DNA of 64,000 nucleotides from a virus, in IMG/VR virus record IMGVR_UViG_3300033148_006102, positions 32,001 to 96,000 of that record; one strand, given 5' to 3'. How positions within the stretch are numbered: position 1 is the first letter of the stretch; each line of letters starts with the position of its first letter. Positions 34,343 to 52,789 of the stretch are shown one piece after another. The notes beneath the pieces were generated by a model that did not search any database, was not told the DNA's origin, and saw nothing but the letters and a program-made list of their open reading frames with translations. Both the position numbers and the translations under genes were made by a program.

Positions 34343-34888
34343 ATGGGAACATCGCAGCATGTTAAAGATTGGCGGGCGCGAACAAAGGCACGGATGGTCG
34401 CGGCAATGGGAGGCGCATGTGTTTGTTGTGGTTACGACACGTACGAGGGAGCGCTGCTTTTTCATCATCGAGATCCGAGCACGAAAGATTTTTCGTTGAG
34501 CGGAGTTCGAATGAATCCGAAGAAGTGGTCACGGATTGTCGAGGAACTGAGAAAATGTGTGCTCGTTTGTTGGAACTGCCATATCGAGTTACATGCGGGC
34601 TTACGAAACATACCTGTAGGTGCGGCGGGCTTTGATGAATCGTTTGCCGATTATCGGGCAGAACAACGGGCGAAACTTTTTGATACGTGTCCTGTTTGTG
34701 GGGATAGAAAACGTAAACGACGGAAGTACTGTTCCATCGCATGTAGCCATGAAAATAAAAAGCGTGTATCTGATGAACAATTACGCGCAATGGCAGAACA
34801 AGGAGCAAACTATTCGCAGATAGGACGCGAGTACGGGATTTCTGGAAATGCTGTGAAGAAACGACTGGAGAAATTAAACGGGGTGTAG
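34343..34888 (+). CDS. HNH endonuclease with zinc finger and C-terminal HTH
   Basis: CVCCG...FHHRDP...CVLVCWNCHIELH; ANYSQIGREYGIS. Confidence 0.85.
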   Translation: MGTSQHVKDWRARTKARMVAAMGGACVCCGYDTYEGALLFHHRDPSTKDFSLSGVRMNPKKWSRIVEELRKCVLVCWNCHIELHAGLRNIPVGAAGFDESFADYRAEQRAKLFDTCPVCGDRKRKRRKYCSIACSHENKKRVSDEQLRAMAEQGANYSQIGREYGISGNAVKKRLEKLNGV

Positions 34889-34953
34889 TTCAGAGGAAGA
34901 ACGCCGTGTTTGGGACGCGGAGGCCGGGATTTCAAAATTCCCCACCCCGACCA
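34879..34953 (+). tRNA. trnP: tRNA-Pro(UGG)
   Basis: cloverleaf, TTTGGGA loop, CCA end. Confidence 0.9.
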
Positions 34954-34962
34954 CTTGAGGAT

Positions 34963-35040
34963 GCCTAGCGAGGCCGAAGTAGTCGAGGCACTTGGTTGTG
35001 GTCCAAGGGGAAGTGGGCGCAAGTCCCATCGCTAGGCCCA
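34963..35040 (+). tRNA. trnH: tRNA-His(GUG) with G-1; atypical T-loop CGCAAGT
   Basis: CTTGG-TTGTGGT-CCAAG, C73, CCA end. Confidence 0.85.
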
Positions 35041-35050
35041 GATTGAAAGA

Positions 35051-35124
35051 GCGCCTGTAGTTCAATGGAAGAATGACAGCCTTCCAAGCTGTAGACGAGG
35101 GATCGATACCCTCCAGGCGCTCCA
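35051..35124 (+). tRNA. trnG: tRNA-Gly(UCC)
   Basis: ACAGC-CTTCCAA-GCTGT, U73, CCA end. Confidence 0.9.
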
Positions 35125-35135
35125 GCTCTTTGACA
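35125..35135 (+). promoter_or_regulatory. rrn-type boxA
   Basis: GCTCTTTGACA; no -10 element at promoter spacing. Confidence 0.55.
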
Positions 35136-35158
35136 TCTGAAACGGCCAAACAAAAAAC

Positions 35159-35228
35159 GGGCGTAGATACAGGCTCGATGCCTGTCCTTTCCCGGTTGGG
35201 TAAGGTAGCTTAACGCAAAGCGACGCCC
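35159..35228 (+). ncRNA. circularly permuted, anticodon-less tRNA-like RNA (YrlA-like topology)
   Basis: order: GGGCGT, T-arm ACAGG-CTCGATG-CCTGT, capped acceptor-like stem, TA plus D-arm GCTT/AAGC, ACGCCC. Confidence 0.55.
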
Positions 35229-35233
35229 TTTTC

Positions 35234-35307
35234 GCCGCTCTAGCTCAAGGGCAGAGCGCCACTCTCGTAAAGTGGAGATCCCAGTTCGACTCTGGGGAGC
35301 GGCTCCA
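35234..35307 (+). tRNA. trnT: tRNA-Thr(CGU)
   Basis: CCACT-CTCGTAA-AGTGG, CCA end. Confidence 0.92.
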
Positions 35308-35333
35308 AATTTCTTTTACATGAAAGGATAATT

Positions 35334-35522
35334 GTGGATTTGGTGACGAAAGAAGACGTAAACATCGACTTCGCAGAGGAAACAGAATTTCAGCTGCAGC
35401 TACTCGACCACCGCGTTGCGCCTACGTTGGTCGTCAAGCGCGGTGGTGACATCGTCCTGATCAAGATTTCGAAGGCCAAGGCCGAAGAGCTCTTGAAACT
35501 GGACATTACGGTAGAGGGATAG
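35334..35522 (+). CDS. small hypothetical protein
   Basis: GAAAGGA before GTG; last base of stop is tRNA G1. Confidence 0.55.
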   Translation: MDLVTKEDVNIDFAEETEFQLQLLDHRVAPTLVVKRGGDIVLIKISKAKAEELLKLDITVEG

Positions 35523-35595
35523 CCACTATAGCTCAAGGGAAGAGCACTCGCTTGGTACGCGGGCGATCTCAGTTCGACTCTGAGTAGTGGCTCCA
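35522..35595 (+). tRNA. trnT: tRNA-Thr(GGU)
   Basis: CTCGC-TTGGTAC-GCGGG, CCA end. Confidence 0.92.
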
Positions 35596-35615
35596 CATCA
35601 TTATGAAAGGGATCG

Positions 35616-35799
35616 ATGATTGAACGTGAGCGGGAAATTGAAGAACGTTTCTTGTTAACACAAATGACCAGCGAAGTTGGCAAAACGATGGCGACGCACA
35701 TAACAGTAGGAGCCATTCAAACGGTCGAACAGCTGAAGGAACAGTTTTGCGAATACGTAGACTCGTGTTATGCAAATTTTCGCTCAAAGATAGGAGTAC
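35616..35799 (+). CDS. hypothetical ORF with no stop before tRNA-Thr(UGU); frame continues to 36152
   Basis: GAAAGGG before ATG; frame open through the tRNA. Confidence 0.4.
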
Positions 35800-35874
35800 G
35801 CCAGCGTAGCTCAACGGCAGAGCTTTCGACTTGTAATCGGAAAGACGTCGGTTCGAATCCGACCGCTGGCTCCA
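35800..35874 (+). tRNA. trnT: tRNA-Thr(UGU)
   Basis: TTCGA-CTTGTAA-TCGGA, CCA end. Confidence 0.92.
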
Positions 35875-35891
35875 AACTTGAAAAGGACGGA

Positions 35892-36152
35892 GTGGAATAC
35901 AAGGTTGGCGATCGCGTCATCATGGCCGGTCGCGGAATAAACGAGATAGTAGAACTTCCGAATCCGCCCGAAAAGACCACAATCACCCTGCTGTCACCGA
36001 GTGGTCAGGTATGGTGGGCCGGAGTTGAAGACATTGTGCGATTCCCTGAGAAAGAGTATTACGATCAGTTTATAGCAGATTCGGAAAGACTTGATCTTTG
36101 GGGTGTACCCGCTTTGTACAGATGGCGGGACGAAACATATCCGGAAACGTAG
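35892..36152 (+). CDS. small hypothetical protein (KOW-like YKVGDRV)
   Basis: AAGGA before GTG; stop is tRNA-Phe U8-A9-G10. Confidence 0.5.
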   Translation: MEYKVGDRVIMAGRGINEIVELPNPPEKTTITLLSPSGQVWWAGVEDIVRFPEKEYYDQFIADSERLDLWGVPALYRWRDETYPET

Positions 36153-36221
36153 CTCAGTTTTGGTAGAGCACCGGCCTGAAGAGTCGGGTTGTCGCCGGTT
36201 CGATTCCGACCGGTTCCACCA
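36143..36221 (+). tRNA. trnF: tRNA-Phe(GAA)
   Basis: CCGGC-CTGAAGA-GTCGG, CCA end. Confidence 0.9.
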
Positions 36222-36292
36222 ACTTCCGACATGGACAGTTTTCCCGCTATATTGATGTAGAGGGAAAACTGTCCTTTGTTCGGGAGAATAAC

Positions 36293-38821
36293 ATGCCTGA
36301 TGCTGATCTCAGCCTGATCCTGAAGGGAAGTCGTGAAGTACATACGGCTTACCAAATCCAGATCATTTACGACGGCTTGAATGCGACACAACAAACTGCT
36401 GCAGCCACGCTGTTGGCAGAATACGGCATAAATGCCACAAATATCACGGCGACGAGTGCGCCGTTGGATGATATCGAACGCGCTCTGCAAACTATGTTGG
36501 CGACATTTATGGGAACTGCAGCTACAGGCTCAGGACCAGGTGTCGCTGACTTGGCGGCCTTGAAAGCGATCATTGCAGGTGATCGTACAGACAAGGACGT
36601 GCGGCTAGTCGAATCAGTAGGGTTAACCTATCGTTTCGATGCTGACAGCATTGTGGATCCTACAACAGATCCTGACATTGAAATTCCGGATGACGTTACG
36701 CATCCAGCCCCAGGTCGCTGGTATCTGGTTGAACTGGATGAAGCTGACGAAATTCTGTACGTCAACACAGCGAGTTGGCTGACGGCCACGCATATGCAAG
36801 CGGCTGTCGACGAATTGGCACCGGTGATGCATTCGCCAGTTGCAGATATTGCTGGATTGACGGCGATTGTCGCAGCTTCGCGTGCAGACAGGATGCTGGC
36901 CTTTGTTGATGATCAGAATCGTTTGTATAGTTTTGATGCTGCGGATACGACAGATCCGACTACGCGCACAGACATGGAAATTCCTGATGACGTGACGCAC
37001 CCAGCGCCAGGTCGTTGGATTCGAATGGCGTATCATGCATCTGAGCATGAAAACGGCGGTGTTGATGAGATCAGTGTTGCCGGTCTTAGTGGCCTCTTAG
37101 CAGATGACCAGAATCCGGTTAATCACGCAACTGATCACCAGCATGGCGGCAGCGATGAAGTCGCAACTGCCACACCTGGCGCCAACGCTATTCCGAAGGC
37201 AGACGCATCTGGCTTGCTTGATGGCTGGATCACACAGGCTTGGGACGCGATCGTCGTGGGCACTAACACGGCGGCTACGGATAAGACCAATATTGATGCG
37301 GCTATCTCAGCTGTATCTGCTGGGTCAGGCGATCGTAAGACCATCCTGTTGATGGGACGGTTTGCACTCGGTGCTAATGTGTTCGCGGCAGCGGATTACA
37401 TTACTTTCAATGCTGAGCAAGCATATTTCCGCAAGACTGCAGACAACGCTGGTACGATTTACTTCACCGGTACTGAAATGGTTATGCTCGGCGGTTTTGT
37501 CGAGAACGCCGGTTCATCGTCTAGCGGTGGTTTCTTTGGTGGTCATAAGTGGGAAGGCGGCTTTGTTCTTAGCTGGCCAGCCGCAACACTTATTTCAACT
37601 TCGCAGACCTATGCGCAGTTATCATACCGCGCACAGAGCGGCCTGCCTGTTTCGATATCTGGGGCGGGTTCACAGATTACCGCGAATTATGTAAACGGCG
37701 CAACAGCACCAACCAATAGTTCTTGGGATGTCGCCGCTTCGTCTGGAACGATCACACTTTCTGGCGATAACGTTAATTATCGTAATGGTGGAGGCGGCCC
37801 AGCTGTTGTGGTTTCAGGCTCGGGATCATACTGGCGTGGTAGAGCAAGTGGCGGTATTACAGTAACAGGTACGTATTCGCATGTTGAGGTACCGAACGGT
37901 GCTGCGACATGTAGCGTTACGCAATCTGGCCAAGAAAGCTTTGTAGACGTTCGAGCATCAACTGGCGCAATAGCGCTGAGTGGTATCAATATCACAACGC
38001 GCATCCAATACACTGGTTCCACAGTGTCATCTTTCACGAATACCGCGTCGGATTCAGATATTTTGGTTCGCATGCGTTACCTCGGTAATGCAGTAAATAT
38101 CGCGTTGGGTACAAGAAACACGTACTCGCTGCTCGTGCGGGATACAGCTGGTGGTACAGCTGATACTCTAACGCTGTTATCAGGTACGGACTGTCCAGAA
38201 GCTAAGATTCAGACAGTTCAGCCGACAGTTGATATCGGTGGCGCATCTTTGACAGGCTGCTCCATGACGGTGATGGCTACTGCAGCAGGCGCAGCGGTAA
38301 CAGCCAAGAATGGCTCAGTCGGTAACACGATTGACATTTATTGCGATACGCAGCCGACAGTCGAGGCAGACGCGGCACTTGAGAACACAATTCGTTGGTA
38401 CGACACTTCTGCCCGCGGTATCCTTCGGATGGCGTGGGAGAAGGGTCGCCTGTACCAGACCAAGGAAGAGCTCATCGACTTTGGTGGTACCGGTGCGAAG
38501 AACACGACTATTCAGGTCGACGCGAACGAATGGTGCGAAGGTGTACCGTTGGTTATCGAAACCATTGTTGCGGGTACAAACCCAGGAGCACCGACACAGG
38601 TTGTACCGACTTGGAATGCTGGCGGTATGACAGATCCAACACCGATTGCAGGTGTTGCGGTCAATACGAAGAGTACAGCAGATCTCTTCGAACAGTCTGC
38701 AGCAGCAGCTACTTTGAATCTTGATCCACAGACCGGCGGTGCAGCCTCTGTGGTTGATGCGACCGGCAAGGTGCGGGTCCGTTTCACAACCATCAGGAAT
38801 CTGGCAATGCCGGACGAATAA
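36293..38821 (+). CDS. 842-aa fibre/virion-like protein with internal repeats, inside tRNA array
   Basis: duplicated EIPDDVTHPAPGRW module; HxxxHxxGGxDE repeats; beta-helix-like Ser/Thr/Gly-rich region. Confidence 0.7.
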   Translation: MPDADLSLILKGSREVHTAYQIQIIYDGLNATQQTAAATLLAEYGINATNITATSAPLDDIERALQTMLATFMGTAATGSGPGVADLAALKAIIAGDRTDKDVRLVESVGLTYRFDADSIVDPTTDPDIEIPDDVTHPAPGRWYLVELDEADEILYVNTASWLTATHMQAAVDELAPVMHSPVADIAGLTAIVAASRADRMLAFVDDQNRLYSFDAADTTDPTTRTDMEIPDDVTHPAPGRWIRMAYHASEHENGGVDEISVAGLSGLLADDQNPVNHATDHQHGGSDEVATATPGANAIPKADASGLLDGWITQAWDAIVVGTNTAATDKTNIDAAISAVSAGSGDRKTILLMGRFALGANVFAAADYITFNAEQAYFRKTADNAGTIYFTGTEMVMLGGFVENAGSSSSGGFFGGHKWEGGFVLSWPAATLISTSQTYAQLSYRAQSGLPVSISGAGSQITANYVNGATAPTNSSWDVAASSGTITLSGDNVNYRNGGGGPAVVVSGSGSYWRGRASGGITVTGTYSHVEVPNGAATCSVTQSGQESFVDVRASTGAIALSGINITTRIQYTGSTVSSFTNTASDSDILVRMRYLGNAVNIALGTRNTYSLLVRDTAGGTADTLTLLSGTDCPEAKIQTVQPTVDIGGASLTGCSMTVMATAAGAAVTAKNGSVGNTIDIYCDTQPTVEADAALENTIRWYDTSARGILRMAWEKGRLYQTKEELIDFGGTGAKNTTIQVDANEWCEGVPLVIETIVAGTNPGAPTQVVPTWNAGGMTDPTPIAGVAVNTKSTADLFEQSAAAATLNLDPQTGGAASVVDATGKVRVRFTTIRNLAMPDE

Positions 38822-38834
38822 TAGAGGATGAACG

Positions 38835-39080
38835 ATGGCAGTAACAAGAGATGATGTGGTCACGAAGTTTGACGCACTTCCTGACACCGGTACCATTCGC
38901 GCCCTCGGTTCGGACTACAACATTGTCTGTACCAAGGACGAGGAAACGCCGGCGAACCCTCCGCTGATCGTGGCGGTACAACCACTTGATGGCAGCACGC
39001 ATGTCTTTCTTCAGCATCAGAATGATGATACGCCAGAACCATATGTCGAAGGACCTTGGGAGGCGTTAATTACAGCGTAA
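38835..39080 (+). CDS. hypothetical protein
   Basis: GAGGA before ATG; coupled to next gene. Confidence 0.6.
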   Translation: MAVTRDDVVTKFDALPDTGTIRALGSDYNIVCTKDEETPANPPLIVAVQPLDGSTHVFLQHQNDDTPEPYVEGPWEALITA

Positions 39081-39630
39081 TGAATTCATTCTTTACTGCG
39101 GATCTCCATTTGGATCACGCGAAGATACTACGGCCGGACTTTTGTGCCCGGCCGTATTCTTGTGTAGAGGAAATGAATGAGGCGTTGATCGCGAATTGGA
39201 ACGACCGCGTTACCAAACATGACCAGATATACATACTTGGCGACGTTTCATGGGAGAAACGCGCGATAGAGCATGTACAACGATTAAATGGTCAGAAGTT
39301 TTGATCATAGGTAATCATGATCGAAAGCTACTACCAAAGTACAAGAAGTCAGGCCTATTCCAGTGGGTAAAACCGCTGCACGAAATCAAGGTCGACGACC
39401 AGAAGATTGTGCTTTGTCATTACTCCATGCGCACATGGAATCGTATGCAGCACGGATCCTGGCATTTATTCGGCCATAGTCACGGAACGCTCCCGCCGCA
39501 TGGTAAGTCATTCGATGTAGGCGTGGACTGTTGGAACTATGCGCCGGTCTCATATGAAGAAGTAAAACAAAAGATGGACACACTCGAGATAATATCAGTT
39601 GATCACCACAGACCAAAAGAAGGAGAATAA
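39080..39630 (+). pseudogene. calcineurin-like metallophosphoesterase with a 1-nt frameshift at about 39300
   Basis: ADLHLDH and LGDVS in one frame; GNHD, LCHY and HLFGHSH in another; break at AAG-TTTT-GATC. Confidence 0.8.
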
Positions 39631-40021
39631 CTTGGCAATAAAACTGAACCAATTTCAAAACGGTCGACAGCGAGAGCATACTGTATCGATTCGCACTATC
39701 ATGGAACGTGCATTGGCGCGGACCGAAGATCAAACGCCTTTTCTAAGGGGTGTGCTGTTGTTAGATAAAGAATGGCGACAGATCTGTACAAAGCTGGACT
39801 ACATTGATGCTGCGCTAGCAGCGGCGGAACGCTACGAAGCTTCACTCAATGATAGCAGTCAAACGGCGGAAGATATGATGTTTGAAGCTTTGCGCGAACG
39901 TCTACCCAGCGATGTTGTCGACATGATGGAGTCGGTCACGCCATTCCGCAAGGATGGCAGTACACCGGCAGTTGAGGCAGTTGAGAAACTGGGAAAGTTT
40001 GTAGACAATGCGAAGCTTTAA
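39599..40021 (+). CDS. hypothetical protein
   Basis: ORF; start may be TTG near 39632. Confidence 0.55.
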   Translation: MITTDQKKENNLAIKLNQFQNGRQREHTVSIRTIMERALARTEDQTPFLRGVLLLDKEWRQICTKLDYIDAALAAAERYEASLNDSSQTAEDMMFEALRERLPSDVVDMMESVTPFRKDGSTPAVEAVEKLGKFVDNAKL

Positions 40022-40208
40022 GCAATGTGTTGAAGAATACAAACAAAATCATGCCTGTTTTTGCCTATATTGCGGTCACGACGAGCTGATAGTTCAAGAG
40101 CGATCTGGTCCTAAGATCGAGATGAAACAGCTTGTGACGTGCCCCAAGTGCAAGAGGGCCTGGTGGGAATACTGGGGCTTGATCAGTGTTGAAGAAGCGC
40201 TAGCATGA
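40008..40208 (+). CDS. small zinc-ribbon protein
   Basis: CLYCG...CPKC. Confidence 0.6.
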   Translation: MRSFKQCVEEYKQNHACFCLYCGHDELIVQERSGPKIEMKQLVTCPKCKRAWWEYWGLISVEEALA

Positions 40209-40283
40209 GGCCTCGTCGTCTAATGAACAGGACACTACCCTCCGAAGGTAGAGATCCAGGTTTGAGTCCTGGCGGGGCTACCA
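40209..40283 (+). tRNA. trnR: tRNA-Arg(CCG)
   Basis: CTACC-CTCCGAA-GGTAG, CCA end. Confidence 0.88.
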
Positions 40284-40297
40284 ATTGAAAGGAACAG

Positions 40298-40783
40298 ATG
40301 AAGATTTTGCCCAAGCCATATGATTGGGATATATGCATGCTTGAGATGGCGGCCACACTCGCCAAGATGAGCAAAGATACGTCGACACAGGTTGGCGCAC
40401 TGCTTGTCAGCCCTGATAAGCGGCGCATGTCAGGAGGCTACAACGGCTTTCCGACGAACATTCCCGATTATGAGGACTGGTGGAATCGACGCGAAGACAC
40501 AGAAGGTGAATTTACCAAGTACGAGCTGGTGGTCCATGCTGAGGAAAACGCCATCTGCCAAGCGCGTACGGATCTCACGGGCTGGACGCTGTACTGCACG
40601 CATCAACCATGTCTTCGGTGTTCAAGGTTGATAGCTTCGCAAGGTATTCGACGTGTTGTATGGGATGCGGGTCATGAGGTGACGCGCATGGATCTACAAA
40701 CAGAGAAGGCGCTGAAGCTTTTCGAAGAAGCGGGAATCGAAGTACACACGATTCATTACCGGGATACATATAAGGGGGCGTAG
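40298..40783 (+). CDS. dCMP deaminase (ComEB/T4 cd-like)
   Basis: SKDTSTQVGA, GYNGFP, HAEENAI, PCLRC zinc motifs. Confidence 0.9.
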   Translation: MKILPKPYDWDICMLEMAATLAKMSKDTSTQVGALLVSPDKRRMSGGYNGFPTNIPDYEDWWNRREDTEGEFTKYELVVHAEENAICQARTDLTGWTLYCTHQPCLRCSRLIASQGIRRVVWDAGHEVTRMDLQTEKALKLFEEAGIEVHTIHYRDTYKGA

Positions 40784-40851
40784 CTCAACGGAATTAGAGC
40801 GCTGGTCTACGGAACCAGAGGTTGAAGGTTCGAATCCTTCCGTCCCTACCA
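40774..40851 (+). tRNA. trnR: tRNA-Arg(ACG)
   Basis: CTGGT-CTACGGA-ACCAG, CCA end. Confidence 0.92.
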
Positions 40852-40984
40852 TCTTGAAAGGAAACTGTGGAGAAGCAGGAAGTTGTAATCAAAGTAGTTG
40901 AAAAGGGTGGCAGCGGAATAAGTATCCTGTCGCTGCTTGGCATCGCCGGCGTACTGCCAAGCAGTATGGTTGGTATCAGTAATT

Positions 40985-41058
40985 GGCCACGTCGTCTAAT
41001 GGAAGGATACCAGGCTTTCAACCTGGAGACCGGGGATCGATACCCCGCGTGGCTACCA
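40985..41058 (+). tRNA. trnE: tRNA-Glu(UUC)
   Basis: CCAGG-CTTTCAA-CCTGG, CCA end. Confidence 0.88.
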
Positions 41059-41076
41059 ATTTCACAAGGAGAAGGA

Positions 41077-41262
41077 ATGGCAGAAGAATATGTGACATCG
41101 TTGGTGGACAAACCATCGATTGATATTACTGCACCAAAGGCAGTACAGATCGATATTCGTGAGGATGGGAAGGTGCTCTGGATCAACGTGGACGGGATCT
41201 GTCGTTTACGTTGTTGTCAGATTGAGCTCCTTGAAGTTGAAGACAGGCGAACGAAGAAATGA
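41077..41262 (+). CDS. small hypothetical protein
   Basis: GGAGAAGGA before ATG. Confidence 0.6.
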   Translation: MAEEYVTSLVDKPSIDITAPKAVQIDIREDGKVLWINVDGICRLRCCQIELLEVEDRRTKK

Positions 41263-41567
41263 AGATGTATATTTTGGTCAAGGAGGATGTGCGCTTAGGC
41301 CTTGCCGCCGTAAGTATCGCGCACGCTGCCATGGCCGCCTATTTGGCATACAAAGACACGCCAGAAGTAAAAGAATGGCTCGCCGGTCCTTTCTACAAAG
41401 TTGTGTGTAAAGTGACTGCGCAAGAGATGGAGCAGGCTAAGGACGCCGGGGACTATGTCAGGATCACAGATTCAAACTATGCGGATGGGACTGTGATAAT
41501 TGCACTGGCATTCAAGCCGCGGGAAGAATACCCGAAGGCGTTCAAATACTTCAAGCTTTTCAAATAG
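41259..41567 (+). CDS. pth2: peptidyl-tRNA hydrolase, Pth2 family
   Basis: KMYILV...AAVSIAHAA...EWL...KVVCKV...ITD...ALAFKP. Confidence 0.8.
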   Translation: MKMYILVKEDVRLGLAAVSIAHAAMAAYLAYKDTPEVKEWLAGPFYKVVCKVTAQEMEQAKDAGDYVRITDSNYADGTVIIALAFKPREEYPKAFKYFKLFK

Positions 41568-41642
41568 GTCGCGTGGCGCAACAGGGAGCGCATCAGCATG
41601 ACACGCTGAAGGTTAGAGGTTCGATTCCTCTCGTGGCCACCA
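41567..41642 (+). tRNA. trnV: tRNA-Val(GAC)
   Basis: TCAGC-ATGACAC-GCTGA, CCA end. Confidence 0.88.
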
Positions 41643-41981: not shown

Positions 41982-41982
41982 T

Positions 41983-45263: not shown

Positions 45264-45508
45264 ACCTCAAACTGGAGCTGACAGGCCTGCGGGAGTGCGA
45301 TGCGGTCAGTATTGTCAAGCTGATGTGCATGATGAACTACTTCGGCTCGGCCGGTTGCTCGCGAACCATCAAGCTGTTCGTGGACGGCGACGGCGCATTT
45401 AATTTCGGTCGCGTGCTGGTCGACGGCGAGGAAGTATCACGCAAGGAGCGGCTGAAGCTGATTGGGGAATATGACAAGGAAGATGGGCTGGACTTCGCGT
45501 TCGATTAG
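45236..45508 (+). CDS. hypothetical protein
   Basis: GAAGGA before ATG; last base of stop is tRNA G1. Confidence 0.65.
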   Translation: MPKPEQERVNLKLELTGLRECDAVSIVKLMCMMNYFGSAGCSRTIKLFVDGDGAFNFGRVLVDGEEVSRKERLKLIGEYDKEDGLDFAFD

Positions 45509-45584
45509 GGAGCGTGGCGCAATGGTATAGCGCATCGGTCTTTTAAACCGAGGGTTGTGGGTTCGAGTCCCACCGCTCCCACCA
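45508..45584 (+). tRNA. trnK: tRNA-Lys(UUU)
   Basis: TCGGT-CTTTTAA-ACCGA, CCA end. Confidence 0.93.
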
Positions 45585-45585
45585 T

Positions 45586-45660
45586 TGGCGCGTAGTGTAA
45601 TTGGGAACACGGCAGACTCTGGATCTGCAGTAGAGGGTTCGATTCCTTCCGCGCCAACCA
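45586..45660 (+). tRNA. trnQ: tRNA-Gln(CUG)
   Basis: GCAGA-CTCTGGA-TCTGC, U1-A72, CCA end. Confidence 0.92.
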
Positions 45661-45695
45661 AATTTATGGCCGTTCAGATGGACGGAGAAAGGAAG

Positions 45696-46289
45696 ATGAT
45701 GAAGCGGAACGTACTATTGTTAAACAAGAATTGGCAGCCGATCGCGTCGGCGCCGTGGAGAACTGCGGTAAAGATTGTGATTCGCGGCCATGGGTACGTC
45801 GTGGATCATCGAACTTTTGAACGCTTGGATTGGGTAGCTTGGGTCGCTACGCATTCGGCCGGTATCGATGCGGATGTAGACCGGAGGAGATACATCCAAA
45901 CTGGTGTACGGTTAATCGAATGTCCGAAAGTAGTGACCCTTGCCCGATTCGGCGGTTTACCCAAGCGTCGCCTGGCGTTCAGCCGTAACGGCATTTATGC
46001 CAGAGACAGCCATCGTGGTAAGCCGCAGTGTCAGTACTGCGGATCTTACCCAACTGGTAGAAGCCTGACGTTGGATCACGTTATCCCGCGGGCGCAGGGC
46101 GGAAAGACGCAGTGGGAGAATTGTGTTGTGGCCTGCGAAAAATGCAATATGCTCAAAGCAGATCGCACACCAGAACAAGCAGGCATGCGCCTGTTGAGTA
46201 AGCCTAAACGGCCAGAAGTTTTCCAAGCGTTGCTTGGCGAACTCGAACCGGAATGGGAAGTGTTTGTGAAGCAAGGAAATACAGCATGA
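45696..46289 (+). CDS. HNH endonuclease (HNH_5/McrA-like)
   Basis: VLLLNKNWQP...CQYCG...LTLDHVIPRAQGG...WENCVVACEKCN.LKADRTPEQAGM. Confidence 0.9.
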   Translation: MMKRNVLLLNKNWQPIASAPWRTAVKIVIRGHGYVVDHRTFERLDWVAWVATHSAGIDADVDRRRYIQTGVRLIECPKVVTLARFGGLPKRRLAFSRNGIYARDSHRGKPQCQYCGSYPTGRSLTLDHVIPRAQGGKTQWENCVVACEKCNMLKADRTPEQAGMRLLSKPKRPEVFQALLGELEPEWEVFVKQGNTA

Positions 46290-46471
46290 ATGGGACTGAG
46301 CTGAGAGAATACATACGGAAGCAGGTCCGCAGGTTCCATTACATGAGCCTGTGGGATCTTGTCAGTGAACGAAGTAGCCTACCCAGAAATGGAATGCTAC
46401 ATCGAATCCTGGGACACGTGATTGATTACCGACTCTTGGAGTCGGCGCGACAAAGAGCAGGTACAACGTAG
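46286..46471 (+). CDS. small hypothetical protein
   Basis: ATGA overlap; stop overlaps tRNA-Trp 5' end. Confidence 0.5.
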   Translation: MNGTELREYIRKQVRRFHYMSLWDLVSERSSLPRNGMLHRILGHVIDYRLLESARQRAGTT

Positions 46472-46541
46472 GTCGGGCGCTGGGTCGCAGGACGGTCTCC
46501 AAAATCGTCCTTGGTGGGTTCGATTCCCACCCGGCCTGCCA
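46470..46541 (+). tRNA. trnW: tRNA-Trp(CCA), reduced D-arm
   Basis: AGGTCGG/CCGGCCT acceptor, CTCCAAA loop, G73, CCA end. Confidence 0.82.
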
Positions 46542-46558
46542 ACAATTTTGGAGGTAAC

Positions 46559-46759
46559 GTGGAATTTGAATATGAATGCAAACTTTGCGGAGCGATCGTC
46601 AAACTAGCGGATCTTGATAAACATCTTGAAGAGGAGCATTGGCTCTCTGCGGATGTTAAAGCTGCGCCCAAGAGTGAGTTCTATAAGCTCCACCTCGAGG
46701 GAGATTGTTATGCGATTGCGGCAGACAGCCTGCCAAAAATAAACGGTTCTGTGGCATAA
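46559..46759 (+). CDS. small C2H2-type zinc finger protein
   Basis: CKLCG...LDKHLEEEH; GGAGG before GTG. Confidence 0.6.
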   Translation: MEFEYECKLCGAIVKLADLDKHLEEEHWLSADVKAAPKSEFYKLHLEGDCYAIAADSLPKINGSVA

Positions 46760-46818
46760 GACTGTGTAAGGGCAATCTTATGTGGGATGGCCCGTAATGT
46801 AACGGCTAGCACATGGAA

Positions 46819-46893
46819 TGCGGGATCGTTCAATTGGTAGGACACCTGACTTTGAATCAGGCAATGAGAGTTCAAATCTCTCTCCCGCAGCCA
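46819..46893 (+). tRNA. trnQ: tRNA-Gln(UUG)
   Basis: CCTGA-CTTTGAA-TCAGG, U1-A72, CCA end. Confidence 0.92.
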
Positions 46894-46907
46894 AAAAAGG
46901 AATAGCG

Positions 46908-47399
46908 ATGAAAAAACACAGTCATGGGAAATACGTGATGTTAGTGTTTTCCGATGGTACACGTGTTCTAGAACATCGCTATGTGATGGCGCGACATATT
47001 GGTCGGAAACTACATAGTGATGAAGTGGTGCATCATCGGAACGGAGACGGAAAAGATAATCGTCTACGCAATTTACGGTTATGGTCTTCGAACAGTGAAC
47101 ATACACAACATCACGCGCGGGAGCGTAGTCGAAGTGTCACATGCATGACCTGTGGTAGGTCCTTTGTGTTGAGCCTGGGCGAGTATACGCGCAGGAAACG
47201 TCGAGTAAAACATGGTTTGTACTGCTCACGCTCGTGTGCAGCGCGTTCACCATATACGCGGCGCGCGGAAAGCAAAATTGGTGATTACATACAGCTGTGT
47301 AAAGATTTACCAGGTATATCGATCAATGAAGCAGCAAGTATTCTGAGGGTTTGTCGTAGGACCATATGTAATTGGCGACGACGCCTGAAGAACAATTAA
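46908..47399 (+). CDS. HNH endonuclease (HNH_3) with zinc finger and HTH
   Basis: EHRYVM...VVHHRNGDGKDNRLRNL; ISINEAASILRVCRRTICNW. Confidence 0.88.
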   Translation: MKKHSHGKYVMLVFSDGTRVLEHRYVMARHIGRKLHSDEVVHHRNGDGKDNRLRNLRLWSSNSEHTQHHARERSRSVTCMTCGRSFVLSLGEYTRRKRRVKHGLYCSRSCAARSPYTRRAESKIGDYIQLCKDLPGISINEAASILRVCRRTICNWRRRLKNN

Positions 47400-47435
47400 C
47401 TTTCTTTTGAATCTTTCGTCAAAGGAGAACGAAGA

Positions 47436-49031
47436 ATGGCGAACAAGTCAATTTTCAGCACCCAGCGGGGGCCTGTACATCGACAGTACGGGGAAAGTGT
47501 GAAGACCGTTGATACGGTCAATGAGGCAGGCGGAGAGGCTTACAGCTTCACAGCAAAGTCTGCATTGGCGCAGTTGGCATCGACGGGCTGCTTTGGCAAC
47601 ACGTTCTATGTGAATGCCAAGAGTCAGCTTGACAAGGTTCAGGAATTGTTGCCACAGGTTGACAGCGAGTTTTTGGCCAAGCTGGCCGTATATGCCCGCC
47701 AGAAGGGTTACATGAAGGACATGCCGGCGCTCATGCTCGCGTATCTCTTCGCGCATGCGAAGGATTCTGCGACAGTTGGCGCGTATTTCAAGGCAGCGTT
47801 CCCGGAGGTCATGGACAATGGCCGTATGTTGCGAAACTTTGTCCAGATCATCCGTAGTGGCGTCACCGGGCGTAAGTCGTTCGGTACGGCCGGCAAGCGT
47901 GTGATCCAGGACTGGTTGACTAACCGGTCATACTGGAAGTTGTTCGGCGAAGCAGTTGGCAATGATCCGTCGATGTGTGATGTGCTCAAGATGACGCGGC
48001 CGCATCCAAAGGATGATGAGCAGCGTGCATTGTTTGGTTACATCACTGATGCGAAGGAAGGTTGGGACCGCGAGGCTCTGCCGGACTTCGTGAAGGAATT
48101 TGAGGCCTTCAAGCAGGATCAGACCAAACCTGTACCGAACGTTTCATTCGAACGGTTGTCTGCCCTTCCGCTTGGAAAGGAACACTGGATCGAGATCGCC
48201 AAGAAGGCGACTTGGTTCCAGACGCTCAAATCTCTTAACACGTACAAGCGTCATGGGGCGCTTGAGCATTCTGATGTTGTCGACATTGTCGCTGAGCGTT
48301 TGGCAGATCTTGAGTTGGTCAAGAAGGCCAAGGTATTTCCGTACCAGATCTTTGTGGCTTACAAGGCCGCGAATGACCTGCCACGGAAGATTACTAATGC
48401 GCTGCAGGATGCGCTGGAGCACGCGCTCCGAAACATCCCATTTTATGAGGGCCAGGTTTACATCTTCCCAGATGTTTCCGGCTCAATGTTATGGGGTAAC
48501 TTGACAGGTCATTCGCAGAGTTCAATTCGTTGTATTGACGTGGCGGCATTGATCACCGCGGCGATCATGAAGACGAACTATCTGGCGGAAGTACTTCCGT
48601 TTGATACACGCGTGCATGATGCGAAGTCATTGAATCATCGTGATTCAGTAGTACGCAACGCAGAGATCTTGTCGCGCTTTGGCGGTGGCGGAACGTACTG
48701 CGAGCTTCCGCTGCGTGAACTGAACGACCGTAACGCGAAGGGCGACCTGTTAATCTACGTCTCGGATAACGAGTCGTGGGTCGGCGCCGGCTATCGCAGC
48801 CATACAGGCTTGCTCAATGAGTGGGCGAAGTTCAAGCAGCGTAACCGGCAGGCCAAGATGGTCTGCATTGATCTGCAGGCTAACACCAGCACGCAGGCAA
48901 CGGATACGCCGGACATCTTGAATGTCGGTGGATTCTCTGATCAGGTGTTCAACGTTATCGACGCCTTTTTGAAGGGTGGATCTGATAAGGAACATTGGGT
49001 CAAGGAAATCGAGAAAGTTTATCTAGGATAG
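47436..49031 (+). CDS. rsr: Ro60/TROVE-domain RNA-binding protein
   Basis: NEAGGEAY...GCFGNTFY...LAVYARQKGYMKD; C-terminal vWA with DVSGSM, SDNESW, VGGFSDQVF. Confidence 0.92.
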   Translation: MANKSIFSTQRGPVHRQYGESVKTVDTVNEAGGEAYSFTAKSALAQLASTGCFGNTFYVNAKSQLDKVQELLPQVDSEFLAKLAVYARQKGYMKDMPALMLAYLFAHAKDSATVGAYFKAAFPEVMDNGRMLRNFVQIIRSGVTGRKSFGTAGKRVIQDWLTNRSYWKLFGEAVGNDPSMCDVLKMTRPHPKDDEQRALFGYITDAKEGWDREALPDFVKEFEAFKQDQTKPVPNVSFERLSALPLGKEHWIEIAKKATWFQTLKSLNTYKRHGALEHSDVVDIVAERLADLELVKKAKVFPYQIFVAYKAANDLPRKITNALQDALEHALRNIPFYEGQVYIFPDVSGSMLWGNLTGHSQSSIRCIDVAALITAAIMKTNYLAEVLPFDTRVHDAKSLNHRDSVVRNAEILSRFGGGGTYCELPLRELNDRNAKGDLLIYVSDNESWVGAGYRSHTGLLNEWAKFKQRNRQAKMVCIDLQANTSTQATDTPDILNVGGFSDQVFNVIDAFLKGGSDKEHWVKEIEKVYLG

Positions 49032-49036
49032 GAATT

Positions 49037-49178
49037 TGGGGCGAATGCGGACGGGATTACATTGATTCATAATCCGTTGGTCGGAGGTTCGAATCCTTCC
49101 CTCGCCACCACTATGGCGAGGTAGCTCAGTCTGGTAGAGCAGCGTATATGTCAAATCTCGTCGATTCTCGTCGCCCCA
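49037..49178 (+). ncRNA. Y RNA (YrlA-like) containing a permuted tRNA-Met
   Basis: TGGGGCGA/TCGCCCCA outer stem, GAATGC...TACATT motif, T-arm then capped acceptor then D-arm. Confidence 0.8.
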
Positions 49179-49195
49179 TCCTTTTCCTTCTTATT

Positions 49196-49274
49196 TGGGT
49201 GAATGCCGGTATGGGAGTACATTTCTGCGTGTAATGCTGAACCATGACCACTCTCTACCATCTTTCGTCACCCA
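49196..49274 (+). ncRNA. Y RNA 2 (no tRNA-like domain)
   Basis: TGGGTGA/TCACCCA stem, GAATGCCGG...GTACATT, 3' TCGTC. Confidence 0.7.
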
Positions 49275-49285
49275 CCCTTTTGAAA

Positions 49286-49353
49286 TGGCCGAATGCCGAT
49301 TGGACTACATTGTATCCATCACAAACAACGTCTAATCATAAGCTCGTCGGCCA
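49286..49353 (+). ncRNA. Y RNA 3 (no tRNA-like domain)
   Basis: TGGCCGA/TCGGCCA stem, GAATGCCGA...CTACATT, 3' CTCGTC. Confidence 0.7.
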
Positions 49354-49362
49354 TTTTCTTTT

Positions 49363-49759
49363 GGGGGTGAGTAGGATCGACTGGTCGTTACTGACTGGAA
49401 GAAGCGTGTCGCAGTTGACCAACACCTGCGTTATCAAGATGGTCGCAAACCCAGATGGCAACATCCATCACATGAGCGATTACGCTCGTCCGCAGCTTCA
49501 GGCTGCATAAAGGACAGCTCCGACCAGGTAGCTACCACACCTGGCTGCGGGATACCAACCCAAGGTGAGAAACCAAACAGAGTTAGGTCGGTGAACATGC
49601 CGCAGAGGGGATTCACCATCGAAGTTACGGCGGATAAGGCGTGACCGGGCTGTCGTCGGCTCAGAGGATCGCTCGAAAACATAGATGACGACTACACACG
49701 TAGAAGTGCCGGAATGATCGATACAGCACACGGGGTGCGACTCCCCGTCACCTCCACCA
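49363..49759 (+). ncRNA. ssrA: tmRNA; predicted tag (A)ANPDGNIHHMSDYARPQLQAA
   Basis: GGGGGTGA...GGATCGAC 5' end, G3:U70, T-arm plus TCCACCA 3' end, tag ORF 49445-49510 ending in AA. Confidence 0.9.
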
Positions 49760-49765
49760 GATTTT

Positions 49766-49873
49766 GCCGTCGAATGCGGTGATAATTATTACCCCGCACT
49801 GAAAACTATTTCGGGAATTTGGCTACCGGAAATAGGCAGTAGGAAGCCGAATAGCCTACGGGGAATCGGCGGC
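49766..49873 (+). ncRNA. unassigned multi-branch structured RNA candidate
   Basis: GCCGTCGA/TCGGCGGC outer stem enclosing three hairpins; begins with GAATGCGG. Confidence 0.4.
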
Positions 49874-49907
49874 CCATATTGAGAGCGCACGGGGGTTCCG
49901 TGCACGC

Positions 49908-49957
49908 GCCGCGCAACGTTCATGCTCATGTCCGTTGCGCGGCTGCTTTCTTTTTTA
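49908..49957 (+). terminator. intrinsic terminator ending tRNA/Ro60/tmRNA unit 1
   Basis: 11-bp GCCGCGCAACG/CGTTGCGCGGC followed by TGCTTTCTTTTTT. Confidence 0.7.
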
Positions 49958-49966
49958 CGAAGAGGG

Positions 49967-49994
49967 TTGACATCCGATTTATCGAATGTACCTT
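49967..49994 (+). promoter_or_regulatory. sigma70-like promoter of tRNA unit 2
   Basis: TTGACA-N16-TACCTT. Confidence 0.65.
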
Positions 49995-50014
49995 GAGATG
50001 TTCGCGGAGCTTAG

Positions 50015-50130
50015 CAGGCTTGCACTGCGATTTCGGTTTCTCTGTTCCGACCTGGCACGCTATGCGTGATTAAAAACAGAGTGGTGGACTGGGACAGTGG
50101 ATGGAGGACACCAAATCCGCCGGAAGCCTG
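50015..50130 (+). ncRNA. long irregular hairpin RNA candidate
   Basis: nested pairs CAGGCTT/AAGCCTG, GCGATTTCGGT/ACCAAATCCGC, CTCTGTT/AACAGAG, CACGC/GCGTG. Confidence 0.4.
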
Positions 50131-50184
50131 TCACGCCCTCGTCTTGATCCGGGACGCTAACTTGGATCAGCTTTTTGAATTTGT

Positions 50185-50262
50185 TGCGGGGTGGAGCAGT
50201 CTAGTCAGCTCGCAAGGCTCATAACCTTGAGGTCGTCAGTTCAAATCCTTCCCCCGCCACCA
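50185..50262 (+). tRNA. trnfM: initiator-type tRNA-fMet(CAU) with disrupted T-stem
   Basis: GCGGGGTGGAGCAG...GCTCATAACC...TTCAAAT...CCCCGCCACCA; 1:72 mismatch; T-stem GTCAG/CCTTC has 2 of 5 pairs. Confidence 0.7.
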
Positions 50263-50275
50263 ATTTGGAGAAAAG

Positions 50276-50341
50276 ATGAAGACGTTACTGAGTTACTCGT
50301 CCTTGTATCTGTGCCTCTCAGGCGCGGAGGTTGGCGTGTAA
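50276..50341 (+). promoter_or_regulatory. leader peptide ORF 2, MKTLLSYSSLYLCLSGAEVGV*
   Basis: GGAGAAAAG before ATG; 12 consecutive Leu/Ser/Tyr/Cys codons; stop inside the antiterminator strand. Confidence 0.75.
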
Positions 50342-50401
50342 CTGGATCTTCATCACCTACCGGTCCCAGAAACCCGCCAGCACAACCTGGCGGGTTTTCT
50401 G
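50331..50401 (+). terminator. mutually exclusive antiterminator/terminator (attenuator 2)
   Basis: AAACCCGCCAG/CTGGCGGGTTT terminator with T-rich tail; 50331-345 can pair with 50366-380 (12 of 15). Confidence 0.75.
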
Positions 50402-50405
50402 TTGA

Positions 50406-50416
50406 GCTCTTTGACA
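50406..50416 (+). promoter_or_regulatory. rrn-type boxA
   Basis: GCTCTTTGACA directly after attenuator 2. Confidence 0.6.
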
Positions 50417-50433
50417 TTTGTGACGGAACTAAT

Positions 50434-50523
50434 GGTCGGTGTTCCCCATGGCGGTCTGTAAAACCGTTGTCGTTAAATATTTGGGGTAGTAGACGAATGG
50501 TCCAATTCCATTACCGACCACCA
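50434..50523 (+). tRNA. trnY: atypical tRNA-Tyr(GUA): no D-stem, long variable region
   Basis: GGTCGGT/ACCGACC acceptor, GCGGT-CTGTAAA-ACCGT, AATGG-TCCAATT-CCATT, A73, CCA end. Confidence 0.72.
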
Positions 50524-50540
50524 TTTCTTGAAAGGAAAAC

Positions 50541-51029
50541 ATGGGAAGAGAAGTACGAATGGTTCCACCCAACTGGAAGCATCCAATAGGCGATCGTGGA
50601 TACCTACAACCAATGCACGATGAGAACTTCGAAGAAGCACTTGCGGAGTGGAAGAACGGTCAGGCTGCATGGGAAGCTGGCACGCACGAAGATTTCGCAG
50701 AATATGGTGAAGACACCTCCTGGGAAGATTGGGCCGGCGAAGAGCCAGAGCCTGAATACTATCGGCCATGGAAAGCCGAAGAAGCCACGTGGTATCAGCT
50801 CTGGGAGACGGTTAGCGAAGGTACGCCGGTAACACCACCTTTTGCAACAAAGGAAGAGCTCGCGGACTACCTAGTCAATGTCGGCGAAGACTTCGGCCGG
50901 CGACAGACATGGCCGCGCGAGGCCGCTGATAACATGATGCGAGAAGAATGGGCGCCTTCGTTCATTGCTCGAGACGGCGTGATAATGGAGCCTAAGGATC
51001 CTGCTTTCTTTTCGGGAATGAAGAAATAA
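50541..51029 (+). CDS. acidic Trp-rich hypothetical protein
   Basis: GAAAGGA RBS; YQLWETVSEGTPVTPPF. Confidence 0.7.
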   Translation: MGREVRMVPPNWKHPIGDRGYLQPMHDENFEEALAEWKNGQAAWEAGTHEDFAEYGEDTSWEDWAGEEPEPEYYRPWKAEEATWYQLWETVSEGTPVTPPFATKEELADYLVNVGEDFGRRQTWPREAADNMMREEWAPSFIARDGVIMEPKDPAFFSGMKK

Positions 51030-51032
51030 TAA

Positions 51033-51109
51033 GCCTCCGTAGGCGAATTGGGATAGCCGCTTGACTTAGGATCAAGTGTTTGTGAGTTCGACTTTCACCG
51101 GAGGTACCA
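51033..51109 (+). tRNA. trnL: tRNA-Leu(UAG), short variable arm
   Basis: CTTGA-CTTAGGA-TCAAG, CCA end. Confidence 0.88.
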
Positions 51110-51114
51110 ATATT

Positions 51115-51236
51115 GAAGAGTACGGCGACGCAGCGAACTGCGGACGGGGTAGGCGGGTTGCTAGCACTTGGCCTGCACGGGCGGAATAAATCGAAAGACG
51201 CCGTGAGCAGAGGTAATTGAACTGCCCGTACTCTTC
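51115..51236 (+). ncRNA. unassigned five-helix structured RNA candidate
   Basis: perfect 11-bp GAAGAGTACGG/CCGTACTCTTC stem closing four hairpins. Confidence 0.55.
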
Positions 51237-51244
51237 TTCATTTT

Positions 51245-51321
51245 GGCAGCGTAGGCGAATTGGGATAGCCGCCGTACTCAAAATGCGGTGTTTGTGGGTT
51301 CGACTCCCACCGCTGCTACCA
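51245..51321 (+). tRNA. trnL: tRNA-Leu(CAA), short variable arm
   Basis: CCGTA-CTCAAAA-TGCGG, CCA end. Confidence 0.88.
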
Positions 51322-51330
51322 CATTCAACT

Positions 51331-51413
51331 GGCTGGATGGCGGAACTGGTAGACGCGCACGGTTGAGGGCCGTGTTCCCAGGAGTGAGGGTTCGAATCCC
51401 TCTCCAGCCACCA
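51331..51413 (+). tRNA. trnL: tRNA-Leu(GAG), long variable arm
   Basis: CACGG-TTGAGGG-CCGTG, CCA end. Confidence 0.92.
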
Positions 51414-51423
51414 GTTTGACGGA

Positions 51424-51500
51424 GCCTCCGTAGCCCAACTGGGAGAGGCACTTGGTTTAAGCCCAAGTCAGTGTCGGTTCGAATCCGACCGGAGGTACCA
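51424..51500 (+). tRNA. trnL: tRNA-Leu(UAA), short variable arm
   Basis: CTTGG-TTTAAGC-CCAAG, CCA end. Confidence 0.88.
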
Positions 51501-51501
51501 A

Positions 51502-51589
51502 GGAGGTATGGCTGAGTGGAAAAGCTCCCGGTTGCTAACCGGTGGACAGGGTAACACCTGCGCAGGTTCGAATCCTGCTACCTCCGCCA
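51502..51589 (+). tRNA. trnS: tRNA-Ser(GCU)
   Basis: TTGCTAA loop, long variable arm, G73, CCA end. Confidence 0.9.
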
Positions 51590-51608
51590 ATTTTCTTAAA
51601 GGAGAAAA

Positions 51609-51980
51609 GTGAAACGATATAAGCTGAACCTATCAACAAGATTAGTCGGCACGCTAAATATAGAAGCCGAATCAAAAGAAGAGGCCCTGGAAAAGGCAAA
51701 CGTACGAAGTGATAACAGTAATATCGAATGGTTGAATCACGACCAGGCAGCTGAGATCACCGGTGTTGACTGTCTGGGCGAGGCCACCATCCGCGAATAC
51801 ACCTTCACGGTTAAGCGACAGCTTCAAGGTCAATGTGAAGTAGAGGCGGCTAATGAAGACGAGGCCCGCCGAAAGCTCGACAGTATCATGGAGCATAGTG
51901 ATGGTGACATCGAATGGGATGATGATGGCTATGACATCGAAGATGTTGAAATTGAGGAATGGGAAGCTGACGAGGAGTAA
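51609..51980 (+). CDS. acidic protein with two DpnD/PcfM-like repeats
   Basis: LNIEAESKEEALEKA and CEVEAANEDEARRKL. Confidence 0.6.
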   Translation: MKRYKLNLSTRLVGTLNIEAESKEEALEKANVRSDNSNIEWLNHDQAAEITGVDCLGEATIREYTFTVKRQLQGQCEVEAANEDEARRKLDSIMEHSDGDIEWDDDGYDIEDVEIEEWEADEE

Positions 51981-51981
51981 A

Positions 51982-52479
51982 ATGTCGGCAAAATGTAAAA
52001 CACCAAACAAAATAGATCTCAAGAAGCTCGATCTTTATCGAGTCAAATTTGAATGGAATGGTGAGACAGTTTACGGTCTTGTCGATTTGTACGATAGAGA
52101 CTCTGATGAATACGCCGAACGTGGCTTAGTACTTGTGGATCATTGTGTGCTGAGGACACGATATGCGCTACCGCCAAGTAAACTGACACCAATGAAATGT
52201 TCTTTTGAACCTGATGATGAATTTGACCAATATGTTGAGCAGCAGGCCAAAGAGGCGCAAGAGCTCCATAAATCGCTGCCGAAGGACAAGCTCTGTGTTG
52301 GCCATATGTTTTCAATCGGTGTGGGCGATGGTTATGCGTCTTATGTGGTAACAAAGGTATTCAAGAAGAATTGCGATATTGAATGGCGCGGCTTCTGTGT
52401 GGATCGTTGGACGGACCATCACTTCGGATGGGGCGGCCGCTTCCCGATCGATGAGATCATGCGGTACGTGGGACCATAG
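51982..52479 (+). CDS. hypothetical protein
   Basis: GAGGAG before ATG. Confidence 0.65.
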   Translation: MSAKCKTPNKIDLKKLDLYRVKFEWNGETVYGLVDLYDRDSDEYAERGLVLVDHCVLRTRYALPPSKLTPMKCSFEPDDEFDQYVEQQAKEAQELHKSLPKDKLCVGHMFSIGVGDGYASYVVTKVFKKNCDIEWRGFCVDRWTDHHFGWGGRFPIDEIMRYVGP

Positions 52480-52487
52480 CTTTGACG

Positions 52488-52703
52488 ATGTACATACGCG
52501 AGTCCGCGGATGAATATAGGCCGATCTCAGATGAGGAATTCGATGAGATCAACCGCAAGTGTGATACTGTTTCAGGTGATGCAATTTGTGAAGTATGTGG
52601 AAAACCATATCGTGATCACCCTACGTTGAAGATATACCAGGATCGACACACAGCGTGGTGGTTTCCGAAGATCCTTTGCAACGGGCGCTATGGTCATACG
52701 TAG
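52488..52703 (+). CDS. small hypothetical protein with CEVC...H motif
   Basis: last base of stop is tRNA G1. Confidence 0.55.
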   Translation: MYIRESADEYRPISDEEFDEINRKCDTVSGDAICEVCGKPYRDHPTLKIYQDRHTAWWFPKILCNGRYGHT

Positions 52704-52789
52704 GAGGGTACCGCTGAAGTGGTCGGCAACCGGTCTTGAAAATCGGGGTGGTGTAACAGCCAGGGGTTCGAACCCTCTACCCTCCGCCA
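52703..52789 (+). tRNA. trnS: tRNA-Ser(UGA)
   Basis: CCGGT-CTTGAAA-ATCGG, long variable arm, G73, CCA end. Confidence 0.88.

Follow-up and report, generated by a model that had tools for sequence, protein, structure and literature searches.

In this study, we examined an island of transfer RNA (tRNA) genes in a phage genome, in which many protein-coding genes end inside, or exactly against, the tRNA gene that follows them. The window, meaning the whole stretch of DNA that was analysed, comprises 64,000 nucleotides (nt; G000:C1:32001-96000) of the 195,108-bp IMG/VR phage record IMGVR_UViG_3300033148_006102, hereafter G000, a record that carries direct terminal repeats and has a G+C content of ~50% throughout the window. 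Our analysis suggests that the fused junctions are probably, in the main, a product of extreme compaction whose side effects are tolerated. The system does not appear to be built around the transfer-messenger RNA (tmRNA) that the phage itself encodes.

ARAGORN called 28 tRNAs in the window; they lie from 34879 to 52969, every one on the + strand, and account for all the tRNAs of the G000 genome. The island (34.3-53 kb) uses this single strand throughout, and alongside the tRNAs holds the tmRNA, a Y-RNA-like RNA, genes for Ro60, a VWA protein, Pth2, dCMP deaminase and HNH proteins, and ~15 small open reading frames (ORFs). Setting the ARAGORN tRNAs against the ORF list gave the following junctions, in which a slash marks the tRNA 5′ end and coding scores reflect codon usage trained on the G000 genome:

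34343-34888, + strand: HNH endonuclease ORF, followed by tRNA-Pro(tgg) at 34879-34953; TAG at 34886-34888 is tRNA nt 8-10.
35334-35522, + strand: ORF of 62 amino acids (aa), followed by tRNA-Thr(ggt) at 35522-35595; TA/G, with G as tRNA nt 1.
35892-36152, + strand: 86-aa ORF, followed by tRNA-Phe(gaa) at 36143-36221; TAG is tRNA nt 8-10.
40008-40208, + strand: 66-aa ORF with weak support (coding score about 0), followed by tRNA-Arg(ccg) at 40209-40283; TGA abuts the tRNA.
40298-40783, + strand: dCMP deaminase ORF (PF00383, 6.3e-20), followed by tRNA-Arg(acg) at 40774-40851; TAG is tRNA nt 8-10.
41259-41567, + strand: PTH2-family ORF, followed by tRNA-Val(gac) at 41567-41642; TA/G, with G as tRNA nt 1.
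41657-41905, + strand: 82-aa ORF, followed by tRNA-Val(tac) at 41906-41981; TAA abuts exactly.
44128-44637, + strand: HNH/EndoVII-like ORF (match at 3.7e-8), followed by a tRNA-Lys(CUU)-like cloverleaf at 44619-44695; TAG at nt 17-19.
45236-45508, + strand: 90-aa ORF (coding score 29.7), followed by tRNA-Lys(ttt) at 45508-45584; TA/G, with G as tRNA nt 1.
46253-46471, + strand: 72-aa doubtful ORF, followed by tRNA-Trp at 46470-46541; T/AG, with AG as tRNA nt 1-2.
50541-51029, + strand: 162-aa ORF (coding score 52.5), followed by tRNA-Leu(tag) at 51033-51109; tandem TAA TAA, the second abutting the tRNA.
52482-52703, + strand: 73-aa ORF, followed by tRNA-Ser(tga) at 52703-52789; TA/G, with G as tRNA nt 1.

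A first-pass annotation of the same DNA had drawn attention to most of these junctions, and ARAGORN and the ORF coordinates agree with it on the three ORFs with TAG at tRNA nt 8-10 (34888/Pro, 36152/Phe and 40783/Arg), on the five that overlap nt 1-2 (35522, 41567, 45508 and 52703 by 1 nt, 46471 by 2 nt) and on the exact abutments at 40208 and 41905. Its total of nine ORFs ending in tRNAs holds for eight, the ninth (HNH 44637/Lys) depending on a sub-threshold, non-canonical cloverleaf; the TAA TAA junction at tRNA-Leu(tag) 51033 had been absent from its list. Its labels for the HNH genes (34343, 44128), dCMP deaminase, Pth2 and tmRNA are borne out by profile matches: the HNH ORF at 34343 matches phrog_35854 at 1.6e-31, and the PTH2-family ORF matches positions 1-81 of the 115 in PF01981 (31 bits, 3e-7, above the gathering cutoff of 23) as well as the PDB Pth2 structure 1rzw (E 0.0026). 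Most junction ORFs are coding-like by codon usage, that at 35334-35522 exceeding the 99th percentile of small ORFs with a score of about 29-30; the exceptions are 46253-46471, with a negative score (-7.5 to -9.2), and the neutral 40008-40208. The 86-aa gene begins at GTG 35892, and its homologues (83-99 aa) match within 1-5 residues of their ends. A longer frame of 178 aa at 35616-36152, which runs through tRNA-Thr(tgt), was considered as a gene with an inserted tRNA and rejected, as these homologues cover residues 93-178 only.

The island as a whole is about as densely packed as is physically possible. Spacers between neighbouring tRNAs measure 1, 1, 1, 1, 9, 10 and 18 nt, and their median is the lowest of the 11 arrays in which such spacers occur. 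The elements tile in a regular order, from tRNA to a short stretch with a ribosome-binding site (RBS), to ORF, to the next tRNA, and 13-22 nt with an RBS separate a tRNA CCA from the next start codon, the sole exception being the 5 nt before ORF 42160. In a crude gene call over the whole G000 genome, 79/185 same-strand gene pairs (43%) stand at a spacer of 0 or less, most often at -1 (24 pairs) or -4 (23 pairs). Gene-tRNA junctions reach 7/11 at or below 0 by a strict count, and 9/12 by a homology-adjusted count that adds the homology-supported HNH gene with its Lys-like element. This is marginally higher than the gene-gene value (p = 0.04 to 0.2), and among tightly packed junctions alone there is no difference (p = 0.34). 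Overlap exceeds chance when set against other phages, as described below, but only marginally when set against the genome's own gene-gene packing (p = 0.04-0.34), and simple compaction, which the first-pass annotation had named as its own alternative, fits better. The proteins show no visible extension: the alignment of Pth2 with its homologue from G001, the sole array-bearing relative found, runs to the last residues, the HNH profile match (aa 18-177) reaches aa 177 of 181, and the 86-aa protein matches the ends of its homologues.

We propose that intergenic DNA has been squeezed out until a gene ends at spacer 0 or borrows its stop from invariant tRNA nucleotides. G+1 would complete TA/G, and U8-A9-G10 would read as TAG, by the same logic that may have given the 1- and 4-nt gene-gene overlaps dominating G000. 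The stops at the junctions are TAG in 8/10, versus 28% genome-wide, an excess expected if they are borrowed from these tRNA positions. Since zero and negative spacers leave no room for a promoter or terminator, each ORF must be co-transcribed with its tRNA. Separate transcription units for ORFs and tRNAs were rejected, as promoter-like and terminator-like sites do not exceed their frequency in shuffled sequence. A look through sequencing runs with window positions 39000-47000 turned up no RNA run, the one match being a DNA run that shares 0.06 of the words. RNase P cleaves at tRNA +1, and from this specificity we infer that the cut removes all or part of the stop codon in 8-9 ORFs and would form the 3′ end of every upstream message. 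For any one transcript, ORF termination and tRNA maturation would be alternatives, and the processed 5′ fragments, non-stop in 8-9 cases, would probably be short-lived. As they carry no protective 3′ hairpin, such fragments are likely to be short-lived with or without a stop, which would weaken selection for keeping stops outside the tRNA. By analogy with earlier proposals for T4 and T5, expression damping of the HNH nuclease genes is plausible. Stop-codon recoding was also considered and rejected, as none of the 28 tRNAs has a suppressor anticodon (CTA, TTA or TCA).

Two further ORFs have no stop ahead of their tRNA:

35616-35874, + strand: ORF of 61 codons from ATG 35616, with RBS; open up to and through tRNA-Thr(tgt) 35800-35874, with no stop; coding score 13.5.
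40867-41058, + strand: hydrophobic ORF of 39 codons from GTG 40867, with RBS; reads through tRNA-Glu(ttc) 40985-41058; coding score 10.4.

Both stay open in frame into the following cistron and, if real, are stop-less on processed RNA; by chance, a stop-less junction is expected at ~1 in 10 junctions. Homologue comparison and a word-indexed search found no homologues of the 61-codon ORF. The Lys-like element at 44619-44695 gave no ARAGORN call at default and no Rfam match at E<=1, and was called by ARAGORN at relaxed thresholds only. Its fold is a clean cloverleaf (fold z -2.1) that carries a CUU anticodon and ends in CCA; an A in place of U8 and an unusual T-loop set it apart from a canonical tRNA. 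G001 has a canonical tRNA-Lys(ctt), which the ORF upstream overlaps by 18 nt.

The first-pass annotation had read the fusions as a processing-coupled timer. Selection would have placed the stops in the tRNAs, full-length protein would be made only before RNase P acts and would later be tagged through tmRNA and cleared, and Pth2 would recycle dropped peptidyl-tRNA, which would explain why the phage carries both tmRNA and Pth2. The tmRNA lies within the island, as does Pth2:

49363-49759, + strand: tmRNA; Rfam RF00023, 69.1 bits, cutoff 47.

ARAGORN missed it at default, and its membership of RF00023 is shown by the score together with the tag frame; at a relaxed threshold ARAGORN reads the tag as ANPDGNIHHMSDYARPQLQAA, 21 residues ending in LQAA. 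The loss of stops from 8-9 ORFs by a cut at +1 is sound as an inference, the two stop-less small ORFs fit the same scheme, and G001 has a tmRNA as well as 8 overlaps. A comparable expression-damping idea is, moreover, in print for T4 segB (PMC2330249) and, as cited there, for the T5 nucleases. A selected timer acting through tmRNA and Pth2 found no such backing. We ran the same script on 11 other phage tRNA arrays, with tmRNA status assigned by Rfam or ARAGORN; a further contig, L132, matches G001 at 100% identity and was not counted as independent. Junctions at or below 0 were:

Arrays with tmRNA: G001 9/19; G002 3/14; G004 0/8; XacN1 0/9; Bxz1 0/3.
Arrays without tmRNA: T5 4/10; G003 3/8; KVP40 1/4; Atu_ph07 2/6; Aeh1 0/5; Myrna 1/2.

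The first-pass annotation had proposed comparing overlap frequency in arrays with and without tmRNA, and no association emerged: the pooled counts are 12/53 with tmRNA and 11/35 without (Fisher p = 0.46). XacN1, Bxz1 and G004 combine a tmRNA with 0/20 such junctions, and T5 has overlaps while a tmRNA check of its genome found none. These data lend no support to overlap as the reason for carrying a tmRNA. Moreover, to our knowledge every bacterial host carries its own tmRNA, so that a phage copy would be unneeded for rescue. The overlap of Pth2 with a tRNA is unique to G000 among about 70 homologue loci (see below), and the potentially toxic nucleases are a minority of the overlapping ORFs. Taken together, we consider the timer distinctly unlikely.

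As to tmRNA status, RF00023 found no tmRNA in Myrna or CcrColossus, and the tmRNAs of XacN1 and phiCbK, both permuted forms, were called by ARAGORN only. The relation between tRNA-tRNA spacing and overlap frequency across arrays was too noisy for any claim of correlation. ARAGORN also called a tRNA whose anticodon has four bases (aaac) in G001 (L017, G001:C1:20001-40000) at about 11355-11431, ~5 kb downstream of the G001 tmRNA, and amber-reading tRNAs (anticodon CTA) in XacN1 (L073-L074) and in the metagenomic contig L114, where the upstream ORF abuts.

Several findings weigh against compaction as a sufficient account. G000 is an outlier, with 7/11 (p = 0.017) or 9/12 (p = 0.0015) junctions at or below 0 versus 23/88 elsewhere (Fisher), and the one array-bearing relative found, G001, combines a tmRNA with its 9/19, so that a lineage-specific function may be at work. 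In tight arrays such as L086, most stops stay clear of the tRNA by 1-3 nt, which indicates that packing permits overlap and does not force it. Two RBS-bearing ORFs without a stop ahead of a tRNA are, in addition, odd under a purely neutral model. As G001 is also an outlier, the high overlap frequency is a trait of the lineage, not of tmRNA carriage. Searches found no close relative of G000; those with the 842-aa protein, Ro60 and dCMP deaminase found no array-bearing relative, and those with Pth2 led to distant arrays only (43-61% identity).

Homologues of the genes concerned were compared for the presence of a fusion. Among about 70 viral and metagenomic loci with Pth2 homologues (33-61% identity), none has a tRNA overlap; the closest Pth2-tRNA spacers are +1, +5, +9 and +41; at most loci, no tRNA lies nearby. 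In G001, the next gene after Pth2 is another ORF, and dCMP deaminase has no same-strand tRNA after it. Homologues of the 86-aa protein have protein genes, not tRNAs, after them. Judged from these sequences, fusion to a tRNA is not conserved for the Pth2, dCMP deaminase or 86-aa genes. The G001 homologue of the HNH gene at 34343 abuts tRNA-Gln at spacer 0, which would suit a footprint of mobile-gene insertion, in which homing endonuclease genes or small cassettes insert at tRNA borders, with target sites in the conserved tRNA genes, and so fuse ORF 3′ ends to tRNA 5′ ends. Four HNH genes lie in the island, those at 34343 and 44128, with stops inside tRNAs, and two more:

45663-46289, + strand: HNH_5 gene (HNH match).
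About 46896-47399, + strand: HNH_3 plus HTH gene (HNH match).

Their codon scores are atypical, consistent with mobility; hegC and hegD of T5 likewise end inside tRNAs, and, in a related phage, T4 SegB cuts inside tRNA genes (PMC2330249). Most of the fused ORFs, however, encode no nuclease and resemble native genes in codon usage, and insertion leaves the equally minimal tRNA-tRNA spacers unexplained. We regard insertion as unlikely, although less so than the timer.

Other features of the island bear on its RNA content:

49038-49180, + strand: YrlA-like Y RNA; 64.9 bits, just below the cutoff of 69.

This RNA lies 6 nt downstream of the Ro60/TROVE-vWA gene (47436-49031), and the tmRNA begins ~180 nt beyond it; together the three form a phage-borne RNA quality-control cluster. 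The island is headed by a tRNA-like element at 34199-34285, which scores 33 bits to the tRNA-Sec model and is called Asn(gtt) by ARAGORN at a relaxed threshold only. Inter-tRNA gaps of 107-135 nt (35125-35233, 40852-40984, 51110-51244 and 52790-52896) and one of 204 nt (35596-35799) may contain further non-canonical RNAs; those at 35596-35799 and 40852-40984 also hold the stop-less small ORFs. A heptamer made up of ATATAA and G stands directly 5′ of tRNAs Arg-acg, Val-tac and Met (40767-40773, 41899-41905 and 44695-44701), and the base at -1 is A for half of all island tRNAs.

If the junctions reflect only packing, they still yield a rule for annotation: a real gene of a large phage can have its end within a tRNA gene, and gene callers in which such overlap is forbidden will truncate or drop it. 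An island with 8-9 junctions at which tRNA maturation and termination must compete is also a natural test bed for the old T4/T5 proposal that the processing of tRNAs holds down expression of adjacent genes, and could help to ask what role phage-encoded tmRNAs play.

Among known systems, the layout recalls the tRNA punctuation of mitochondria, where mRNAs and tRNAs lie butt-joined, the excision of tRNAs creates the ends of mRNAs, and stops are incomplete or shared with a tRNA. Butt-joined messages and shared stops are features that G000 has in common with it; in contrast to mitochondria, G000 keeps RBS leaders. Mitochondria finish U or UA to UAA by polyadenylation, and one could imagine a similar completion here, in which a host enzyme adenylates the 3′ ends left by RNase P and restores UAA. 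The tRNA-punctuated layout would suit this, and four TA/G and one T/AG junctions would leave UA or U at the predicted cut. The three junctions at nt 8-10, however, could not be rescued by adenylation, bacterial poly(A) tails mainly promote decay, and we know of no such completing step for this phage, all of which makes this reading barely credible. Somewhat better placed, yet still only an outside chance and a shade below the timer, is a mitochondrion-like punctuated operon in which purposeful RNase P cuts turn ORF messages, among them those of two HNH genes and the two stop-less ORFs, into non-stop RNAs, with products made briefly and then tagged through the phage tmRNA. If true, tRNA maturation would be the basis of an expression timer that the phage encodes.

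Extreme compaction, the reading we prefer, finds its closest parallel in phage T5 (NC_005859, T5.057-T5.076), which like G000 has a one-strand tRNA array with small ORFs, HNH homing endonuclease genes and tRNA-like stable RNAs. In its curated annotation, four coding sequences end inside the next tRNA (hegD, HNH, by 23 nt; hegC, HNH, by 14 nt; T5.069 by 24 nt; T5.057 by 6 nt) and T5.065 abuts tRNA-Lys, so that 5/12 annotated junctions of a coding sequence with a tRNA overlap or abut. The T5 overlaps are deeper (nt 4-24) and rarer (5/12), whereas those of G000 are mostly of 1 nt or at nt 8-10 (~9/12). One-strand tRNAs with small ORFs, homing endonuclease genes, and ORF ends that overlap or abut tRNAs are all found in the G000 island, as in a T5-type mosaic. 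For T4 segB, a cut during tRNA-Arg maturation has been proposed to split the last sense codon from the stop and so lower expression (Brok-Volchanskaya et al. 2008, PMC2330249); where that paper turns to F-TflI and F-TflII, nucleases of the T5 tRNA cluster, it cites an earlier proposal that transcript processing lowers their expression. As in G000, segB is a homing nuclease gene in a co-transcribed tRNA cluster; unlike G000, T4 offers a single gene whose stop lies 5 nt upstream of tRNA-Arg, with no overlap, and no link to a phage tmRNA was proposed. The core of what the first-pass annotation inferred had therefore already been put forward, as an untested hypothesis, for nuclease genes that lie in tRNA clusters, and the G000 island adds a new and dense case to an arrangement already known.

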